Shown piece by piece: positions 18,485 to 27,102 of a stretch of DNA of 64,000 bases (its first letter is position 1; each line of letters begins with the position of its first letter). The stretch lies in NCBI GenBank assembly GCA_019058315.1, contig JAHPZH010000002.1:512001-576000 (forward strand). Direction: 5' to 3'. Made by a program: the position numbers and the translations under genes. The notes beneath the pieces were generated by a model, which did not search any database, had not been told where the DNA came from, and worked only from the letters and a program-made list of their open reading frames with translations. The stretch comes from Candidatus Helarchaeota archaeon. Its GTDB lineage: Archaea > Asgardarchaeota > Lokiarchaeia > Helarchaeales > RDOG01.

Positions 18485-20299
18485 TTAATCGTTTGATTTC
18501 AAAGAGATGTAATAATAATCTCCGGTTTTTTTCTGTTTTCTATCTAACTCAGAATTTAATTTGTTTACTCTTGGTCTACCTGTACGTGGGTCTCGACGAA
18601 AAGTAATATTAACATTTTTTAAAAATAGGTTCATCCCACTTTTTAGATCGATTGGGGGAGTGGAAAAACCTTTCTTTCCCGATTCTCCTGAAAATACAAT
18701 TAATGAATCACTTAAAAAATCAACAGCCAAAATATCATGTTCAACTATAAAGGCGGCTGCTTTTTTATTTTCTATAAACCTTTTTATTGTTTTTGTAATT
18801 GTTAAACGTGCATAGCTATCAAGGTAAGCTGAAGGTTCATCAAATAGATAAACATCGGCTTCTTTAGAAAGAGTATTAGCAATTGCAAGTTTTTGAAGTT
18901 CTCCTCCTGATAATTCTGTAATATATCTTTCTTCTAATTCAGATAAATTAAATGGTTTTAGAATTTGAGATTTGTAAATTGCGGTATCAAAATTTTTACC
19001 AGCTGATTCTCTTAGAAGCATTTCAACTGTGCCATCAAATTCAATATTCAAATATTGTGGTTTTAATGCTATTTTAAGTTCTTTTTCTAATGGTTCACCT
19101 ACATCAGGGGGTAATTCACCACCCAACAATTTAATAAATGTAGATTTTCCCAATCCATTTTTACCAACTATCCCTATAATTTCTCCTTTGTGAATAACTC
19201 CTTCATTAATCTTAAGATAAAAATCTCCCAGTTGCTTTTCCATTTTATTATAACTTGTTATCACTTCTGTACTTTCCCATCCTCCTGAACCTAGTGGATT
19301 TAAATGAAATCTTATAGGTTCTGTTCGAAATCGAATATTTTCATCTGGCAAAAAGCCATCCAAATAAAGGTTTATACCCTCTCTAACACCATGAATATGG
19401 GAAACAATTCCATAAACTGCTGGTTGCCCATATAGGATATGGACATAATCGCTAAGATAATCGCAAATTATTAAATCATGTTCTACAATAATTACCGTCT
19501 TTCCCAATGTTGCTAATTGATGGAGGACTTTAGTAACTTCTAACCGCTCTTTGACATCTAAATAACTGGATGGTTCATCAAAAAAGTATACATCTGCATC
19601 TCGTGCAATAACTGCTGCTATTGCAGTTCTTTGCAATTCTCCTCCTGACAAAATATTTAAGTTTCTATTCCAAAATTCTTTCAAATTTAAGGATTCTTTT
19701 AATTCATTAATTACTCCTCGCTCATTCACCTTCTCTAAAAGCTCTGATACAACACCTTTTGTAATTTCTGGTATCTTGGTTACATATTGGGGTTTATGTA
19801 CTAATTTTACTTGATTTTCTGAAATATCTTTAAAATAATTTTGAAGTTCTGAACCCCGAAAATTACGAATAATTTCATTCCATTCTGGCGGTTCTTCTGG
19901 ATGCCCTAAATTTGGCTTGATTTCTCCTGCTAGAATTTTTATGGCCGTAGTTTTGCCAGAACCATTAGGTCCTATTAACCCAATTATTTTTCCAGCTTTA
20001 ACAATTGGAAGGCGGAAAAGTACAAAACCTCCTAAATCAAATCTATGAACAAAATCACTCTTTAATTCCTCTGCTATATTTGCAATAGTAATTGCGTGAA
20101 ATGGACATTTTTTAACACATATACCACAGCCAGTACAAACATTTTCAATAATTCTCGCCTTATTAATATCCTCATCCAAAATGATTGCTTCTGCCCCAGA
20201 ACGAACTACAGGACAAAAACGTATACAAGGGACTTTTTGAGTCGGAGGAGCACATTTCTCGGGTCTGCAGCGATCTGGTTCAATTACGCCTACTCTCAA
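18485..20299 (-). CDS. rli: Ribosome recycling ATPase ABCE1 (RLI)
   Basis: N-terminal 2x[4Fe-4S] domain (CTGCGICVKKCPF), two ABC domains (GPNGSGKTT, GKNGLGKST, LSGGELQ, DEPS) and TFRRDP..GRPRVNK. Confidence 0.98.
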   Translation of the reverse strand: MRVGVIEPDRCRPEKCAPPTQKVPCIRFCPVVRSGAEAIILDEDINKARIIENVCTGCGICVKKCPFHAITIANIAEELKSDFVHRFDLGGFVLFRLPIVKAGKIIGLIGPNGSGKTTAIKILAGEIKPNLGHPEEPPEWNEIIRNFRGSELQNYFKDISENQVKLVHKPQYVTKIPEITKGVVSELLEKVNERGVINELKESLNLKEFWNRNLNILSGGELQRTAIAAVIARDADVYFFDEPSSYLDVKERLEVTKVLHQLATLGKTVIIVEHDLIICDYLSDYVHILYGQPAVYGIVSHIHGVREGINLYLDGFLPDENIRFRTEPIRFHLNPLGSGGWESTEVITSYNKMEKQLGDFYLKINEGVIHKGEIIGIVGKNGLGKSTFIKLLGGELPPDVGEPLEKELKIALKPQYLNIEFDGTVEMLLRESAGKNFDTAIYKSQILKPFNLSELEERYITELSGGELQKLAIANTLSKEADVYLFDEPSAYLDSYARLTITKTIKRFIENKKAAAFIVEHDILAVDFLSDSLIVFSGESGKKGFSTPPIDLKSGMNLFLKNVNITFRRDPRTGRPRVNKLNSELDRKQKKTGDYYYISLKSND

Positions 20300-20360: not shown

Positions 20361-20434
20361 TGAGAGAAATTGTCAGAACTCATAAAGATACCATCACAAA
20401 TCAGGTTGCTCCAAGTCGTCATTCATTTCTCTCA
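20361..20434 (-). ncRNA. Box C/D guide sRNA (candidate tRNA-Met C34 2'-O-methylation guide)
   Basis: Minus strand reads C box ATGACGA, guide CTTGGAGCAAC, D' CTGA, ttt, C' GTGATGG, guide TATCTTTATGAGTT, D CTGA. It is enclosed by a perfect 10-bp terminal inverted repeat (tgagagaaat 20361-70 / atttctctca 20425-34). Confidence 0.88.
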
Positions 20435-20526: not shown

Positions 20527-20928
20527 TTAAGAGCCTTTTACATTCATAATTTTCTTTTTATTGAGAATTGTCCAATACTCGGCAGTAGCTCCTTCGACAA
20601 GTTTACTTTTGATTTCCTCATCAGTTGGCATATCCACTTCAAACGTTTCATATGTGCTATTATCCATAAGTTGAACAGTATCGGGTGTTATTGATGTAAT
20701 TATACCGGTACTTTTATCTATCAGTGGAACCTCAACATTTGAATGAGATGGAAAAGTAAGGCTCCTTTTATTACGATCAAATAAACCTACACATACTACT
20801 CGAACTTTTGCGTGACCATGTTTACCTGATTTTGAAACATCAACTGAAATTATTCTGCAAGGTTCATCATTGATTAATACAAATCGATTTGCTTTTAATG
20901 ACCCTGCTGATTGTTGTTTTTTAGACAT
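20527..20928 (-). CDS. eif5a: Translation factor aIF5A/eIF5A
   Basis: Hypusine motif SKSGKHGHAK and VQLMD..TYETFE. Confidence 0.98.
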   Translation of the reverse strand: MSKKQQSAGSLKANRFVLINDEPCRIISVDVSKSGKHGHAKVRVVCVGLFDRNKRSLTFPSHSNVEVPLIDKSTGIITSITPDTVQLMDNSTYETFEVDMPTDEEIKSKLVEGATAEYWTILNKKKIMNVKGS

Positions 20929-21032: not shown

Positions 21033-22481
21033 TTGACGCTACGCCAGCACGAAAAAGGTATTCTCGCGATGGAAAAAGATGAATTGATAAAATTAATCAT
21101 TAAAAATGAAAAAATTTATAATAAAATAGGTAAAAAATTCCAAATAACTTTAATAGATGACAAAATTAACCAAGTTTTTCAAATCAACAATACAAATAAT
21201 ATAATATATGCAAAAGTCAGTAGGCGAGGTTGGAGTAGATATGAATGGAACTCATTAAACTCTTTATATAATAAAGGATATTACGTTCCAGAACCAATTT
21301 ATTATATACCAATAGAGACTCCTATTTCTCTCGGTTGGTCATTTGGAGATTTAACACAAGAAAATGGTATTATTTTCTATTATCCAATTACAGGTAACAG
21401 TTTAAAAAAAAGTTATAGTATGGATAAATTAATTTCAGTTCTAAATTTATTACATAATTTTCACAAAGAAAATATCAAATCAAGCAGTCCTATTCAAAAA
21501 TATCAAGAAACTGAAGTTAAACGAGGATTAAAATATGTCAAAGATCTAATATTGGGTGATAACACAAGATTAATAAGAATAATAAAAAGTTATTCAAACT
21601 TACGAATTGATTTTGGGTTAATTCATGGAGATGCTCGCCCAGAACATTTTATTTTTCATAACAACAGAATCGGAATGATTGATTTAGAAGGAACATGTAT
21701 TGGGGACCCGTTTAAGGATTTTGGTATTTTATTAGCTGAACTCTATATCTATAATAAAGACATAAATCTGTTCGATTATAAATTAATGAAAAAATTGTTT
21801 GGTCGTGATCTTTCTGATAACGAGATTCTAAGATTAAATTTCTTTTTAATTAGAAGAATTTTAGTAAAAATGAAATATGGAAAATTAGTAAGAAGTAAAG
21901 AGAATATTATAAAAACACTTAAAACCCTTAGCGAATATGAAAATGAAATTTTGGATAAAAAAGAAAAGAAAATTCTAATTTTAGATACATCTGCTTTTTT
22001 AGGAGGATACAATCCTAATATTATTACTATTAAACAGCATACTATTCCTGAAGTTTTTGATGAAGTAAAAACTCCAATGGTTAAATCTTTAATAGAAATT
22101 TCAGTAGAAACTGGAAAACTCAAGTTAAATTCACCATCATCTCAATTTATCGATGAAGTTAAGTCCATTAGTGAAAAATCTGGGGATAGTTTCGTACTTT
22201 CAGATGTAGATGTAAAGATATTGGCTCTTGCATTAGAAATGGAAAGAAAAGAGGGACTTATTCCTACTCTTATTACTGATGATTATGCAATGCAGAATAT
22301 TGCCGGAAAATTAAATATTAAATTTAAGCCAATACTCGAAAAAGAAATACAAGATTTAATAAAATGGAAGATTTATTGTCCAGGTTGCAAAAAATCATTT
22401 AATAATATTCCAAAAACAAAAATTTGCCCCAATTGTGGAACGAGTTTGAAAAGATTTTCATATAAAAAATCAAAAAGATAG
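21033..22481 (+). CDS. nob1: Fusion of an APH/RIO-like kinase domain and a Nob1 PIN endonuclease with Zn ribbon (likely start ATG 21069)
   Basis: Kinase half: YAK..E, VPEP, HGDARPEH, IDLE, GDPFKD. Nob1 half: ILDTSAFL, EV..EVK, LS..D..ILALA, TDDYAMQN, CPGC...CPNCG. Confidence 0.88.
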   Translation: MTLRQHEKGILAMEKDELIKLIIKNEKIYNKIGKKFQITLIDDKINQVFQINNTNNIIYAKVSRRGWSRYEWNSLNSLYNKGYYVPEPIYYIPIETPISLGWSFGDLTQENGIIFYYPITGNSLKKSYSMDKLISVLNLLHNFHKENIKSSSPIQKYQETEVKRGLKYVKDLILGDNTRLIRIIKSYSNLRIDFGLIHGDARPEHFIFHNNRIGMIDLEGTCIGDPFKDFGILLAELYIYNKDINLFDYKLMKKLFGRDLSDNEILRLNFFLIRRILVKMKYGKLVRSKENIIKTLKTLSEYENEILDKKEKKILILDTSAFLGGYNPNIITIKQHTIPEVFDEVKTPMVKSLIEISVETGKLKLNSPSSQFIDEVKSISEKSGDSFVLSDVDVKILALALEMERKEGLIPTLITDDYAMQNIAGKLNIKFKPILEKEIQDLIKWKIYCPGCKKSFNNIPKTKICPNCGTSLKRFSYKKSKR

Positions 22482-22661: not shown

Positions 22662-22814
22662 GTGTTTAATTTCTTAGTTAAAATTGAATGTAAAAAATGT
22701 GGAAATGAATTTCATGCAAGTTTGGAACAATTAGAAAATTATTTCTATTGTCCAATTTGTGAATGTCTTGGAAATATCAATCAATTATTTAAAATTATAT
22801 CCATTGAAGCTTGA
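22662..22814 (+). CDS. Small zinc-ribbon protein (50 aa, GTG start), not in ORF track
   Basis: MFNFLVKIECKKCGNEFHASLEQLENYFYCPICECLGNINQLFKIISIEA*, with CKKC...CPIC. Confidence 0.6.
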   Translation: MFNFLVKIECKKCGNEFHASLEQLENYFYCPICECLGNINQLFKIISIEA

Positions 22815-22905: not shown

Positions 22906-23931
22906 ATGGGAATTACAAATCTTGGGAAAATAATTGAAATAAAGCATATTCAAATGAAAGACTTGCATAAGAAAAGAATAGCGATTGATTCAAATAATAT
23001 TTTATATCAATTTTTGGCTAGAATACGTCAACCGGATGGAACTCCTCTTAAAGATTCCCAAGAGAGGATTACTTCACATTTATCTGGTCTCTTTTTTAGG
23101 ACAATTAATTTATTAGAAAATTCTGTCGAACCAGTCTATGTTTATGATGGTAAACCTACAACTCTAAAGATGCAAGTTCTAGAAGTTAGAAGAGAAAAAA
23201 GGGAAGAAGCAAAAAAAGAATGGAAATCTGCAATAGAAAGAGGAGATCTTGTAGCGGCTAGAAAATATGCCCAAGCTGCTTTATTCTTAACTAGAGATAT
23301 GATTTCAGAAAGTAAAAAATTGTTAGATGCTATGGGAATTCCCTATGTTCAAGCTGTTTCAGAAGGTGAATCACAAGCTGCATATATTGCATCAAAAGGG
23401 GATGTGTGGGCTTCCGCATCTCAAGATTGGGATTCATTGTTGTTTGGAACTCCGCAATTAATAAGAAATCTTACAATAACTGGAAGAAGAAAAATACCTG
23501 GTACTGATAGAACTATAGAAATAAATATTGAAGAAATAAATCTAAAAGATGCTTTGAATGCCCTTTCAATAACTCGTGAACAATTAATTGATATCGGATT
23601 ATTGATTGGTACGGATTTTAATGAAGGAATAAGTGGAATTGGTCCAAAGAAAGCTCTTAAAAATATTCTCGATTATAAAAATATTGAAGGGGTAATAAAA
23701 CAAGGAAAAATTAAAATAGATTTTCCTTATGAAGAAATTCGCGAAATTTTTCTAAATCCAGATGTGACAGATGATTATATTATTAAGTTTAAAGATTATG
23801 ATGACCAAAATATATTAAACCTACTAGTTGATGAGCACAGTTTTAGTGAATCTCGAGTCAACACTGCGATAAAACGTTTAAAAAAGGTAAAAGAAAAAAA
23901 GAAGCAAAAAAGTCTCGATAAATGGTTTTAA
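22906..23931 (+). CDS. fen: Flap endonuclease 1
   Basis: MGI, YQFL..IRQPDG, TSHLSG, YDG, EGESQA, SQDWD, GTDFN.GI.GIGPKKA and the C-terminal PIP box QKSLDKWF. Confidence 0.98.
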   Translation: MGITNLGKIIEIKHIQMKDLHKKRIAIDSNNILYQFLARIRQPDGTPLKDSQERITSHLSGLFFRTINLLENSVEPVYVYDGKPTTLKMQVLEVRREKREEAKKEWKSAIERGDLVAARKYAQAALFLTRDMISESKKLLDAMGIPYVQAVSEGESQAAYIASKGDVWASASQDWDSLLFGTPQLIRNLTITGRRKIPGTDRTIEINIEEINLKDALNALSITREQLIDIGLLIGTDFNEGISGIGPKKALKNILDYKNIEGVIKQGKIKIDFPYEEIREIFLNPDVTDDYIIKFKDYDDQNILNLLVDEHSFSESRVNTAIKRLKKVKEKKKQKSLDKWF

Positions 23932-23955: not shown

Positions 23956-26900
23956 CTATTTTTTCTTCGTTTTACTTATCTTTTCTTCCATTATTTGCCT
24001 CATTTTCATAGAACGTATTTGTATTCTCCTTATTAGAATATGTAAAAGTATACCTGCTCCAAAAGCTGATACAAAGACGATTATATATGGAAGATAATCC
24101 TCATATTGAGTAGAATATGGAGCATTATAGGATAAAATCAATTCATGTTCAGCAAATCGGTATTTATCTGCTATAAGTAAATATGTTTCTATCGATTTTG
24201 CTGAAATATTTAAATAAACATCAAAGTATCCAGGGAATGGACCTAAAGAATAATAATCATAACCATATATTAAAAATTCTATGGTCATACTTTCATTTGG
24301 AGCAAGCCATGTTTTTTTACCGACATCTCCTATCTGAATTATTGAAAACCAACCTATCTCTAAACCTAATAATGGTTTATCCAGAAAATAAAAGTGGAGG
24401 TTTGAATCAAAATTAAAAAGAGTACAATTTCCAGTATTTGTTACTTCAAAACTTAAATATAGGAAACTTTGAACATATGGAAGAGCACTTAAACCTATTA
24501 GTTCTATCTTTAGGTTTGCTTCAAAATAGGTTTTATTTATAAATATTGTATAATTAGCCGAATTCCCCATTATATCGTATGCTATTAAGGTCAAATTATG
24601 CCTTGAACCCAATTGATATGTTGAAGCATTCCAATAATATGTAAAAGTTCCATCTTCATACCATGTCGCATTCTGCTGAACATAGATTACATTTCCAAAT
24701 GCATCATATTCAATAACCTGCCCTTCTTGCCCCGGAAGGACTTCGCCTATAGTCTCATTAATGTACAACTCGACTTTTTCAATAGATGTAATATTATCTA
24801 ATGCAAAAAAGGTTATAGGAATGATAAAATTCCAACTTCCACTCGATGAAAATACGCTATTATTTTCATATGAAGTAAAATTAATTTCTGGTTTTACATT
24901 ATCAATTCTTGTGTTAAAAGTGGTTGAATTTGAATTTCCTGCTTTATCAAAAACGGTTAATTGTAATGTAACATCCCCATTTGGAAGTTCCGAACTATTG
25001 AAATTAATGTAATTCTCGGTACCTATAGATGCATTTGCCTTAGTTCCATCTGCTGTAACATTCCACATAAAGATTCTTTTAGAATTAGCATAGAGAAAAT
25101 ATTTATTTATTGTAAAGTTAAACTGATCAAAACCTCCAAATCGCATTACTAAACTTTTATTTTCAAGATGATCTGAATACACATCCAATGTTTCATAATA
25201 TTTAACCTTATAGCTAATAAAATCAACACTTATATTAATTGGATTAGAACTATTCACTTTAACGAAAAATTCAATGCGGGAATTATTATTTTCATCAATT
25301 AGGCTTGAGATTTCATTTCTTGTAATATTAAACCATGTTGAAACTGGAGATGTACTATTAAATACTGAATTATTTATAGTTTGAATAGAGTTTGCTGTCC
25401 AATTCCAAATTTGTAACCCTGCAAATTTGATACTGGAATTTGCATAGCTAATATTTGCTACAACACTAATATTTACAGAATAAACATTATCTACAATACT
25501 TAGATTATAATCGCTTAATTCTACTGCGTAAGCCATTAATATTCCTGCACTTTCATTTGAATAACTGTGAGAATAGTTATCTAAGAAATAAGTCGCAGAA
25601 AAAGAATTACGAAAATCGGTAGCATTTAAAATAGTTCCAGTTATTGTGGCATTTTCTAAACATGTCGCGTTGAGTTCAAGAGTATTATTTGTCCGCAAAT
25701 TAAGATATGCACCGAATGGATCCTCATTATCAATATATATGGGATTAATTAAGATGGTTTGATTTAGACCCTCTCTATTTAAAATTATTAAACTAATATT
25801 ATGAGTGTTATTTTGTGTCTCTGTTCCGTTATAATTCTCAAATGCTGTAACATTCCAATCATGATATACAGATATATTTTGTAAGAAAGGATCTATAGCT
25901 TTTAAATCACCTATATCGTCCCATTTCACTGCATCAGTTGCATTATTATCAATTATCATGGTTATATTAGATATTCCACTTCCAAAATCTAATGCGTTTA
26001 TTTCTATCCTCGCCATTCCACCAACATAACTTCCATTTGATATTGAAGTATTATATTGAGGGGGCGTTACATCGATTATCGAAAATGAGGACTTATTTAA
26101 ACTTGTATTTGTATTTTTACCACTTATATCATAACTTTCAAACCAGAATTCTACATTATCACTTTTATACGTCCACTTTGAACCATCCCAAGCAATACGT
26201 TGCCATGGAAATATTGGAAAATTAGCAGTATAATTATCAGAACCAAAGGCTACTTCAAATCCGATATAATCTACAGATATATTAACTGGATTTGTTGAAG
26301 TTATATTGAGAAATATTTCAATTCGTGAATCATTAGTTTCATCAATATAAGTGGATAAATTATCACCATAAAGAATAATATAATCAGTTGCATTTGTTGT
26401 TGTATTTAAAATTGTCCCATCTATGTCATCTAACTGTTTTGTATTATTATTCCAGATTTGCCATCCTGCCCAAGTTACTCCCGTTGTATTGCTAATGTAT
26501 GCTCGTATGCTGATATTGACAAAATAAGCATATGTGAATATGGATGTATTATATTTACTTAAATTCAAGGAATATGCCATTAGTATCCCACTGGTCCCGT
26601 TTGCATAGCTATGATAAACTCCATCATTAGTTGTGTTAGTTGCATTCACATCATTGATGAAATTCGTAGCATTTAATGTAATATTATTAATCGTATTGTT
26701 TTCTTCAGCATGTAGGGTCTTATTAAGTTGTTCTGGAACCATTATGATATATTCGGGTCCAGCATGAAAATTTAATTCTGTATCATACCAAAGAGTGACA
26801 TTTTTAACTCTAGTGTCATCAGTAACTGTCACGGTAACATTAGCTGATTCATTAACAACACAAAATAGTGGATCAGAAAGGTTAAAGGGATTATTATTAA

Positions 26901-27102
26901 ATTTCCAATTTGAAATATTAGGTGGTGTAGCATCTAAAATTTTAATATCATCAATGGGAGAATGTTCCCTGTTCTGATTTAAATTTAGCCCAGAAAACAG
27001 ATTAAAGTTATTTAATTGAAGTGTATTACTTATAAAAATACCCCCGAATATAATTAATACTAAAAAGAATGCTTTTGATGATATTTTAGTCACTTTAATC
27101 AT
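23956..27102 (-). CDS. Large single-pass surface glycoprotein with Ig-like beta-sandwich domains
   Basis: N-terminal signal/TM segment, many N-x-S/T sequons, an internally duplicated module (HSY.N...GILMAY...L..YN; NPV/INISVD), D..P/GN Ig-like motifs, C-terminal TM and basic tail. Confidence 0.85.
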   Translation of the reverse strand: MIKVTKISSKAFFLVLIIFGGIFISNTLQLNNFNLFSGLNLNQNREHSPIDDIKILDATPPNISNWKFNNNPFNLSDPLFCVVNESANVTVTVTDDTRVKNVTLWYDTELNFHAGPEYIIMVPEQLNKTLHAEENNTINNITLNATNFINDVNATNTTNDGVYHSYANGTSGILMAYSLNLSKYNTSIFTYAYFVNISIRAYISNTTGVTWAGWQIWNNNTKQLDDIDGTILNTTTNATDYIILYGDNLSTYIDETNDSRIEIFLNITSTNPVNISVDYIGFEVAFGSDNYTANFPIFPWQRIAWDGSKWTYKSDNVEFWFESYDISGKNTNTSLNKSSFSIIDVTPPQYNTSISNGSYVGGMARIEINALDFGSGISNITMIIDNNATDAVKWDDIGDLKAIDPFLQNISVYHDWNVTAFENYNGTETQNNTHNISLIILNREGLNQTILINPIYIDNEDPFGAYLNLRTNNTLELNATCLENATITGTILNATDFRNSFSATYFLDNYSHSYSNESAGILMAYAVELSDYNLSIVDNVYSVNISVVANISYANSSIKFAGLQIWNWTANSIQTINNSVFNSTSPVSTWFNITRNEISSLIDENNNSRIEFFVKVNSSNPINISVDFISYKVKYYETLDVYSDHLENKSLVMRFGGFDQFNFTINKYFLYANSKRIFMWNVTADGTKANASIGTENYINFNSSELPNGDVTLQLTVFDKAGNSNSTTFNTRIDNVKPEINFTSYENNSVFSSSGSWNFIIPITFFALDNITSIEKVELYINETIGEVLPGQEGQVIEYDAFGNVIYVQQNATWYEDGTFTYYWNASTYQLGSRHNLTLIAYDIMGNSANYTIFINKTYFEANLKIELIGLSALPYVQSFLYLSFEVTNTGNCTLFNFDSNLHFYFLDKPLLGLEIGWFSIIQIGDVGKKTWLAPNESMTIEFLIYGYDYYSLGPFPGYFDVYLNISAKSIETYLLIADKYRFAEHELILSYNAPYSTQYEDYLPYIIVFVSAFGAGILLHILIRRIQIRSMKMRQIMEEKISKTKKK

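Follow-up and report, generated by a model that had tools for sequence, protein, structure and literature searches.

Why should the only Nob1 of an archaeon begin with a domain that looks like a small-molecule kinase? The question is raised by a 64,000-nucleotide stretch of a Candidatus Helarchaeota genome (assembly GCA_019058315.1, contig JAHPZH010000002.1, positions 512,001 to 576,000), to which we refer from here on as the window. In it a single open frame runs without interruption from 21033 to 22481 on the forward strand (482 amino acids counted from a TTG) and joins a kinase-like domain to Nob1. The initial annotation had read this frame as a kinase fold fused to Nob1, and the open reading frame (ORF), the Pfam matches and the homologues all bear that out. 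In all homologues, and in the identical database protein P0002, the start is the ATG at 21069, giving 470 residues and ending at a TAG stop; the gene probably begins there, the upstream in-frame TTG at 21033 probably not being the start. Our preferred answer to the question, one that we rate about evenly for and against, is that the kinase-like domain may serve Nob1 as a nucleotide-binding accessory or regulatory module, which in part of the order would have become a pseudokinase.

The C-terminal part is the more readily recognized. Its 175-178 residues resemble the Nob1 of Pyrococcus horikoshii (PDB 2lcq; Veith et al. 2012, as cited in PMC8339473) end to end, with a phmmer E-value of 4e-28, about 34% identity and an alignment that spans residues 9-162 of the 165 in that protein; yeast and human NOB1 are matched too. 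Pfam PIN_6 matches residues 315-403 of the 482-residue form at 57.2 bits (cut-off 27), and the archaeal Nob1 models of NCBIfam (PRK12496) match residues 313-480 at about 1e-33, under their equivalog cut-offs. The Pfam Zn_ribbon_NOB1 match is sub-threshold (17.7 vs 24.9 bits). When the full-length model was searched with Foldseek, the C-terminal half returned P. horikoshii Nob1 and human NOB1. The four acidic residues of the PIN domain (D306, E332, D381 and D405) and all four Cys of the zinc ribbon are present and do not vary among 19 Nob1 sequences, whether fused, split or stand-alone, in keeping with the initial description of a complete Nob1. Since PIN_6 matches no other gene in the genome (5.8 Mb, 94% complete), the cell has no Nob1 other than the fusion protein. 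The shared layout, the catalytic residues and the sole copy together suggest that this part is presumably the endonuclease of the 16S rRNA 3' end. The expectation that archaeal Nob1 is normally a stand-alone protein also held: it is one of about 170-200 residues in 145 of the 146 sampled Asgard genomes having Nob1, and all other Nob1 in these genomes lie in open frames of 161-242 residues.

The N-terminal domain had been described as 'APH/RIO-like', a label of which only the first half stands. Pfam APH (PF01636) matches residues 130-236 of the 482-residue form at 45.2 bits (cut-off 23.2) and is found in all 22 of 22 members of the family, whereas RIO1 (PF01163) reaches 16.5 bits against a cut-off of 22, and in the N-lobe only. 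RIO1 matches occur in 14 of the 22 members, the best at 36.6 bits and each below the member's own APH score; some members unlinked to nob1 pass the RIO1 cut-off. The AlphaFold model of the domain alone (pLDDT 93.6, pTM 0.91) was compared exhaustively, over 292 residues, with 48,161 PDB representatives using VIA-align, in which rows 1-2 Z units apart are effectively tied. The top match is 5-methylthioribose (MTR) kinase (2pyw; Z 19.8, 272 residues aligned), with APHs at Z 17-18 and many aminoglycoside and other antibiotic kinases, choline/ethanolamine kinases and fructosamine-3-kinases (FN3K) at Z 15-18; MTR kinase, the APHs, the choline kinases and FN3K together span Z 16-20, with 230-272 of the 292 residues aligned. 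The best 45 matches are all small-molecule kinases of the APH, MTR kinase (MTRK) or choline kinase (ChoK) type, covering 225-272 residues, as against 186 residues for Bud32 (Z 13.1) and 171 for Rio2 (Z 12.6). The top Foldseek matches are APH(3')-Ia and AmiN (E about 1e-10), and the bilobal fold includes a C-terminal helical substrate subdomain (helices 214-291) that aligns with APH, MTRK and ChoK. Two canonical RIO kinases, scoring 205 and 191 bits, are encoded elsewhere in the same genome. Because APH outscores RIO1, the fold coverage favors the small-molecule kinases and true RIO genes exist elsewhere, the domain belongs to the APH/choline-kinase branch of the kinase superfamily and is not a RIO or Bud32 kinase.

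The fusion is not peculiar to this assembly. Eight further fused proteins of 470-473 residues, each with both Pfam domains and 64-81% identity, occur in NCBI, ENA and JGI assemblies, labeled by their submitters as Helarchaeota, Hodarchaeota or Promethearchaeota. The junction (about 21900-21980), which the initial annotation had singled out for checking in reads and in related genomes, was examined in Logan contigs. Contigs from three other samples, belonging to two other studies, span it at about 96% identity with zero indels (X2 record 10, covering 21501-22138; X3 record 19, 21803-22030; X5 record 24, 21783-22015). When the kinase parts were placed in a maximum-likelihood tree, the eight fused sequences grouped into a single clade (support 88/98) nested among split forms; the fusion arose one time only, within a sub-clade of a Helarchaeales-like Asgard order. 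The tree is midpoint-rooted only, so that it does not fix the direction from unlinked to linked forms.

The split forms are themselves informative. A kinase gene lies directly 5' of nob1, on the same strand, in six of the seven species genomes of the order, while neither the kinase gene nor nob1 was found in the seventh (82% complete). In the nearest outgroups, P0010 and P0011 (63-66% identical), the kinase and Nob1 genes are separate but overlap, by 11 nucleotides in one of them, and a more distant metagenomic pair (L015) has a gap of 14 nucleotides between kinase and nob1, with aIF5A, FEN1 and ABCE1 around it. In two genomes of one family (L002 in G004 and L003 in G002), kinase and nob1 are in frame and divided by one TAA, followed at once by a TTG start; this arrangement is one substitution short of a fusion, and stop-codon read-through is possible in principle. 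The kinase stop and the Nob1 start of the split relatives map to the connecting helix of the window's protein (residues 277-299), which in the full-length model leads directly into the PIN strand at residues 301-305. Among the fused proteins this helix is the least conserved part, with a mean pairwise identity of 40%, compared to 70% for the kinase and 68% for the PIN domain. The kinase domain, unlike the helix, thus matches the PIN domain in conservation, and is under selection rather than decaying. A prediction of the split pair as a complex (P0012 and its neighboring Nob1, supplied as alignments) scored 0.00 with controls not run, and is evidence neither way. The initial annotation had proposed a Rosetta-stone link between the two halves, to be abandoned if relatives encode them separately. 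Relatives do encode them separately, but as a conserved, tightly coupled pair of adjacent genes that fused once, which is the Rosetta-stone pattern and no sign of an artefact.

The family is very small and confined to Asgard archaea, and its active site divides along the line of Nob1 linkage. A profile search of 1.84 billion representatives recovers 16 clusters at E<=1e-30, beyond which there is generic kinase similarity, and a survey of 300 Asgard genomes places clear orthologues outside the window's order in two other families only. In unlinked members nob1 is on another contig or about 80 kb off. The catalytic loop of the window's protein is HGDARPEH, as first annotated, with His at the Asn position of the HxDxxxxN (Brenner) motif and the catalytic Asp188 kept. 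Every Nob1-linked member reads HG[DG][AP]Rx[ED]H, with His for the Mg-binding Asn and an acidic residue just before it; every unlinked member has the canonical HGD[YF][RS]PxN. Two of the three Nob1-linked families (f2 and f3) have in addition Gly in place of the catalytic Asp (HGG[AP]R...). The fused clade retains the catalytic Asp except for the singleton P0007, known from a single contig, which has Val (HGVARPEH). Lys49, Glu59 and Asp205 are invariant in linked and unlinked branches alike (21-22 members aligned), as is E207 across the family. The Val of P0007 and an internal TGA in the kinase gene of G006 (L005) are either sequencing errors or signs of a relaxed need for catalysis. The change from Asn to His should not by itself be read as a mark of inertness, because the aligned loop of the active, GTP-using APH(2'')-IIIa reads HGDLSPDH. 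On the other hand, f2 and f3, though without the Asp, still have the gene in its usual place and with its nucleotide-binding residues, and the role common to the linked branch is for that reason likely to be nucleotide binding rather than phosphotransfer.

The position before nob1 is also of interest outside the window's order. Nob1 and NAD kinase match coordinates were compared in 150 evenly sampled Asgard genomes, and in most Asgard families a short NAD kinase gene (nadK; about 280-320 residues, GGDG motif intact) directly precedes nob1 and often overlaps it; a few families keep the two apart. For instance, in L009, one of the related loci L007-L012, nadK occupies 588-1511 and nob1 1492-2052. 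In a sister family of the same class, the genes are aIF5A, NAD kinase, nob1 and FEN1, and the NAD kinase gene overruns the start of nob1. The two genes look like a deeply conserved pair across Asgard families, although no nadK-nob1 fusion was seen in the sampled genomes, whose Nob1 frames have the lengths given above. Pfam family searches found no short NAD kinase in the genomes of the window's order; a single-protein query with the sister family's short NAD kinase gave no match in five genomes of the order either, a result that is uninformative alone. The order has one long NADK-family gene (about 380 residues, GGDGT) elsewhere, at C1:172430-173521 in G000 (L040) and also in G001, G002, G004 and G005. 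In short, the window's order has swapped nadK for an APH-fold gene in the slot before nob1. It is possible that the upstream gene holds a Nob1-related role that passed from one kinase fold to another.

We infer from these observations that the domain may be physically and functionally coupled to Nob1 and may place it under nucleotide control. Its action on Nob1 would be in cis where the two are fused and that of a separate subunit in the split relatives; in either form it might, for example, gate access of the PIN site to the 3' end of pre-16S rRNA or time the release of Nob1 from the pre-30S particle. Cleavage may be controlled by ATP or a metabolite, as the initial annotation suggested. In favor of such a role, the change in the active site is found in just those members that are linked to Nob1. 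We would regard as doubtful the more specific proposal that the APH-fold domain is a nucleotide-sensing Nob1 cofactor that displaced a nadK-encoded partner at this locus.

Several points weigh against a regulatory module of Nob1, and a neutral origin of the fusion is a serious alternative that we consider distinctly possible: an ordinary small-molecule kinase, with a sugar, amine or antibiotic-like substrate, landed before nob1, a small indel where stop and start overlap joined the frames, the fusion persists because it is harmless, and the two domains work independently. Adjacency to or overlap with nob1 is weak evidence alone, because an ordinary, normal-looking NAD kinase is packed as tightly into the same slot in most Asgard families, so that nob1 tends to couple with whatever gene is upstream; tight packing behind a kinase gene is nob1's ancestral condition and need not mean physical partnership. 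A one-base indel in an 11-nucleotide overlap like that of the closest split relatives is enough to fuse the genes. The domain's fold and its Pfam family both point to a small-molecule kinase, the fused clade retains the Lys, the Glu, the catalytic Asp and the metal-binding Asp, and the His variant of the loop is at home in an active APH, so the domain could be an active small-molecule kinase unrelated to Nob1. The linker is poorly conserved, unlinked family members exist, and the predictor does not fix the arrangement of the domains (pTM 0.66 for the full length vs 0.91 for the kinase alone). The lineage is also narrow and uncultured. Against a neutral fusion, however, stands the retention of the pair across three families of the order with junctions that vary but are always tight, together with the exact match between active-site change and linkage. 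Proteins that have diverged to as little as 64% identity are still fused, their kinase domain being under as much constraint as the essential PIN domain. Moreover, two linked families that lack the catalytic Asp nonetheless keep the gene where it is, nucleotide-binding residues included, which is hard to reconcile with a plain metabolic kinase.

Three other explanations fare less well. An APH-fold enzyme might phosphorylate NAD, or a related nucleotide or ribose hydroxyl, and so stand in for the short nadK, whose exact slot it occupies (aIF5A, then the kinase gene, nob1 and FEN1) in an order where just the long NADK-family gene was found; the top fold match is moreover a ribose kinase (MTR kinase), although among near-tied rows. 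We consider this improbable. The gene cannot be the NAD kinase of two of the three families, because they have lost the catalytic Asp and are also without the short nadK, and the long paralogue, with intact GGDG, is present in every genome checked. We know of no APH-fold NAD kinase. Still less probable is a RIO- or Bud32-type domain built into Nob1 to license site-D cleavage in the manner of eukaryotic Rio1, the analogy drawn in the initial annotation. The weak RIO1 similarity of the N-lobe in this and other members, and the appearance of Rio2 and Bud32 in the fold list at Z 12.6-13.1, are as expected of a shared superfamily, but APH beats RIO1 in every member, the Rio2 and Bud32 alignments cover 171-186 residues only, and with two canonical RIO kinases elsewhere in the genome nothing is missing for the domain to replace. 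We rejected this candidate on the Pfam scores, the fold coverage and the true RIO genes, there being no homology behind the analogy. That the frame results from an error of assembly or a frameshift, or from a mutation private to this genome, is hardly credible. Relatives outside the fused clade do have two genes, but eight independent assemblies from several sources show the same architecture, the junction-crossing contigs are free of indels and the fused proteins make up one clade; an artefact or private stop loss was rejected on these grounds.

The features of the gene and its surroundings are collected in Table 1.

Table 1. Coordinates, within the window, of the fused gene, its domains and motifs, and the neighboring features.
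Feature	Coordinates	Strand	Basis
ABCE1 (Fer4_RLI and two ABC domains)	18485..20299	-	Domain matches
C/D-box sRNA-like element, between ABCE1 and aIF5A	~20371-20426	-	Sub-threshold Rfam
aIF5A, divergent conserved neighbor	20527..20928	-	Pfam IF5A-like_N and eIF-5a
Fused kinase-like/Nob1 gene (probable extent)	21069..22481	+	ORF; translation identical to P0002; homologue starts
APH/MTR-kinase/choline-kinase-fold domain, residues 1-276	21069..21896	+	Pfam APH; model; structure comparison
Lys49 (YAKV), ATP-anchoring	21213..21215	+	Invariant in aligned family
Glu59, partner of Lys49	21243-21245	+	Invariant in aligned family
Catalytic loop H186-G-D188-A-R-P-E192-H193	21624..21647	+	Family alignment
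IDLEG motif with Asp205, DFG-equivalent metal-binding Asp	21678..21692	+	D205 and E207 family-invariant
Connecting helix, residues 277-299, ancestral gene boundary	21897..21965	+	Model; conservation; split relatives
Nob1 PIN domain, residues 300-420, acidic D306/E332/D381/D405	21966..22328	+	PIN_6; alignment
Nob1 zinc ribbon, CPGC (residues 437-440) and CPNC (residues 453-456)	22377..22436	+	Invariant Cys; alignment to 2lcq
FEN1 (XPG_N/XPG_I), conserved downstream neighbor	22906..23931	+	Pfam

As for the neighbors, aIF5A also adjoins the locus in L015, L002, L003 and L006 and in the sister family, FEN1 lies downstream of Nob1 also in L013 and in L007-L012, and ABCE1 adjoins the kinase-nob1 pair in L015 too. 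The initial annotation had placed aIF5A, ABCE1 and a C/D RNA beside the gene; the two proteins are confirmed, and the C/D-box-like element is present but with sub-threshold Rfam matches only (sR23 scores 20.6 bits where the gathering score is 45). Downstream of the fusion gene and before FEN1, a 50-residue ORF with two CxxC pairs (22662-22814, forward strand) has weak Pfam similarity to treble-clef and DUF7836 families. The relative L013 has a 47-residue ORF at the equivalent place, which suggests that a small zinc-ribbon protein may be real. Beside FEN1, at 23956-27102 on the reverse strand, is a predicted surface protein of 1048 residues, rich in Asn and in sequons and with a C-terminal membrane anchor; L013 and L015 have proteins of 1038-1046 residues at its position, with no Pfam match on record.

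Both parts of the fusion are of known kinds, and what is new is the architecture, the remodeled Nob1-linked branch of the kinase family and the replacement of nadK at the locus. The searchable literature was found to describe neither a kinase-Nob1 fusion nor an APH-family protein as partner of Nob1, literature searches found no APH-family protein described as fused to a ribosome-biogenesis nuclease, and those on Nob1 in Asgard archaea and on NAD kinase with Nob1 returned nothing on such an architecture. In reviews of ribosome biogenesis in archaea, Nob1 figures as a factor on its own and its regulation is left open, and the functional network of archaeal Rio1, Fap7, Dim1, Pno1 and Nob1 'remains to be explored' (PMC8339473). 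How archaeal Nob1 avoids premature cutting is not known, and the domain is a candidate for a new regulator of ribosome maturation. Genomes alone offer few hints of a physical partner, and a fusion that persists while the sequences diverge substantially is one of them; this one points to a protein family that had not been connected with ribosome biogenesis, in the archaea nearest to the eukaryotes. Unlinked, adjacent, in-frame-stop and fused forms all occur in nature, some active-looking and some without the catalytic Asp, and can serve directly as constructs for biochemistry. The occurrence of nadK before nob1 in most Asgard families, and its exchange in this order, may be of wider use, and with no short nadK found there, the question arises how these organisms make NADP. 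Were the domain indeed a cofactor that displaced a nadK-encoded partner, it would imply a nucleotide- or NAD(P)-linked checkpoint on 16S rRNA 3'-end maturation, hitherto unknown, parallel to the RIO kinases and independent of them, and would explain the deeply conserved coupling of kinase genes and nob1 in archaea.

Compared with known systems, the C-terminal part has the same PIN and zinc-ribbon layout as P. horikoshii Nob1 (2lcq), to which the Helarchaeota protein adds an N-terminal kinase-like domain of about 290 residues by way of a helix. That domain shares with the APH, ChoK and MTR kinases (3tdv/3tdw, 2pyw, 4gkh) the bilobal fold, the Lys-Glu pair, the HGD loop and the Asp of IDxEG, but it is just 9-17% identical to them and has a family signature of its own, RGW after the Lys together with ARx[ED]H. 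The HGDxxxxH variant is held in common with APH(2'')-IIIa, whereas the linked relatives in f2 and f3 are without the catalytic Asp. Like the Asgard nadK-nob1 pair, the locus has aIF5A, a kinase gene of about 300 residues, a nob1 that is close or overlapping, and FEN1; it differs in that the upstream gene is APH-like, unrelated to the NAD kinase fold, and in the window is fused to nob1. A parallel in concept is the control of Nob1 by Rio1 and Rio2 in eukaryotic 40S maturation (PMC4231747, PMC3248900, PMC11045238), in which a nucleotide-binding protein of the kinase superfamily is likewise coupled to Nob1 at the last small-subunit step. The window's domain is not of the RIO family, however, and the organism has RIO kinases of its own. 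In eukaryotes the encounter on the pre-40S particle is transient, whereas here the coupling is covalent or operonic and may have a regulatory effect.

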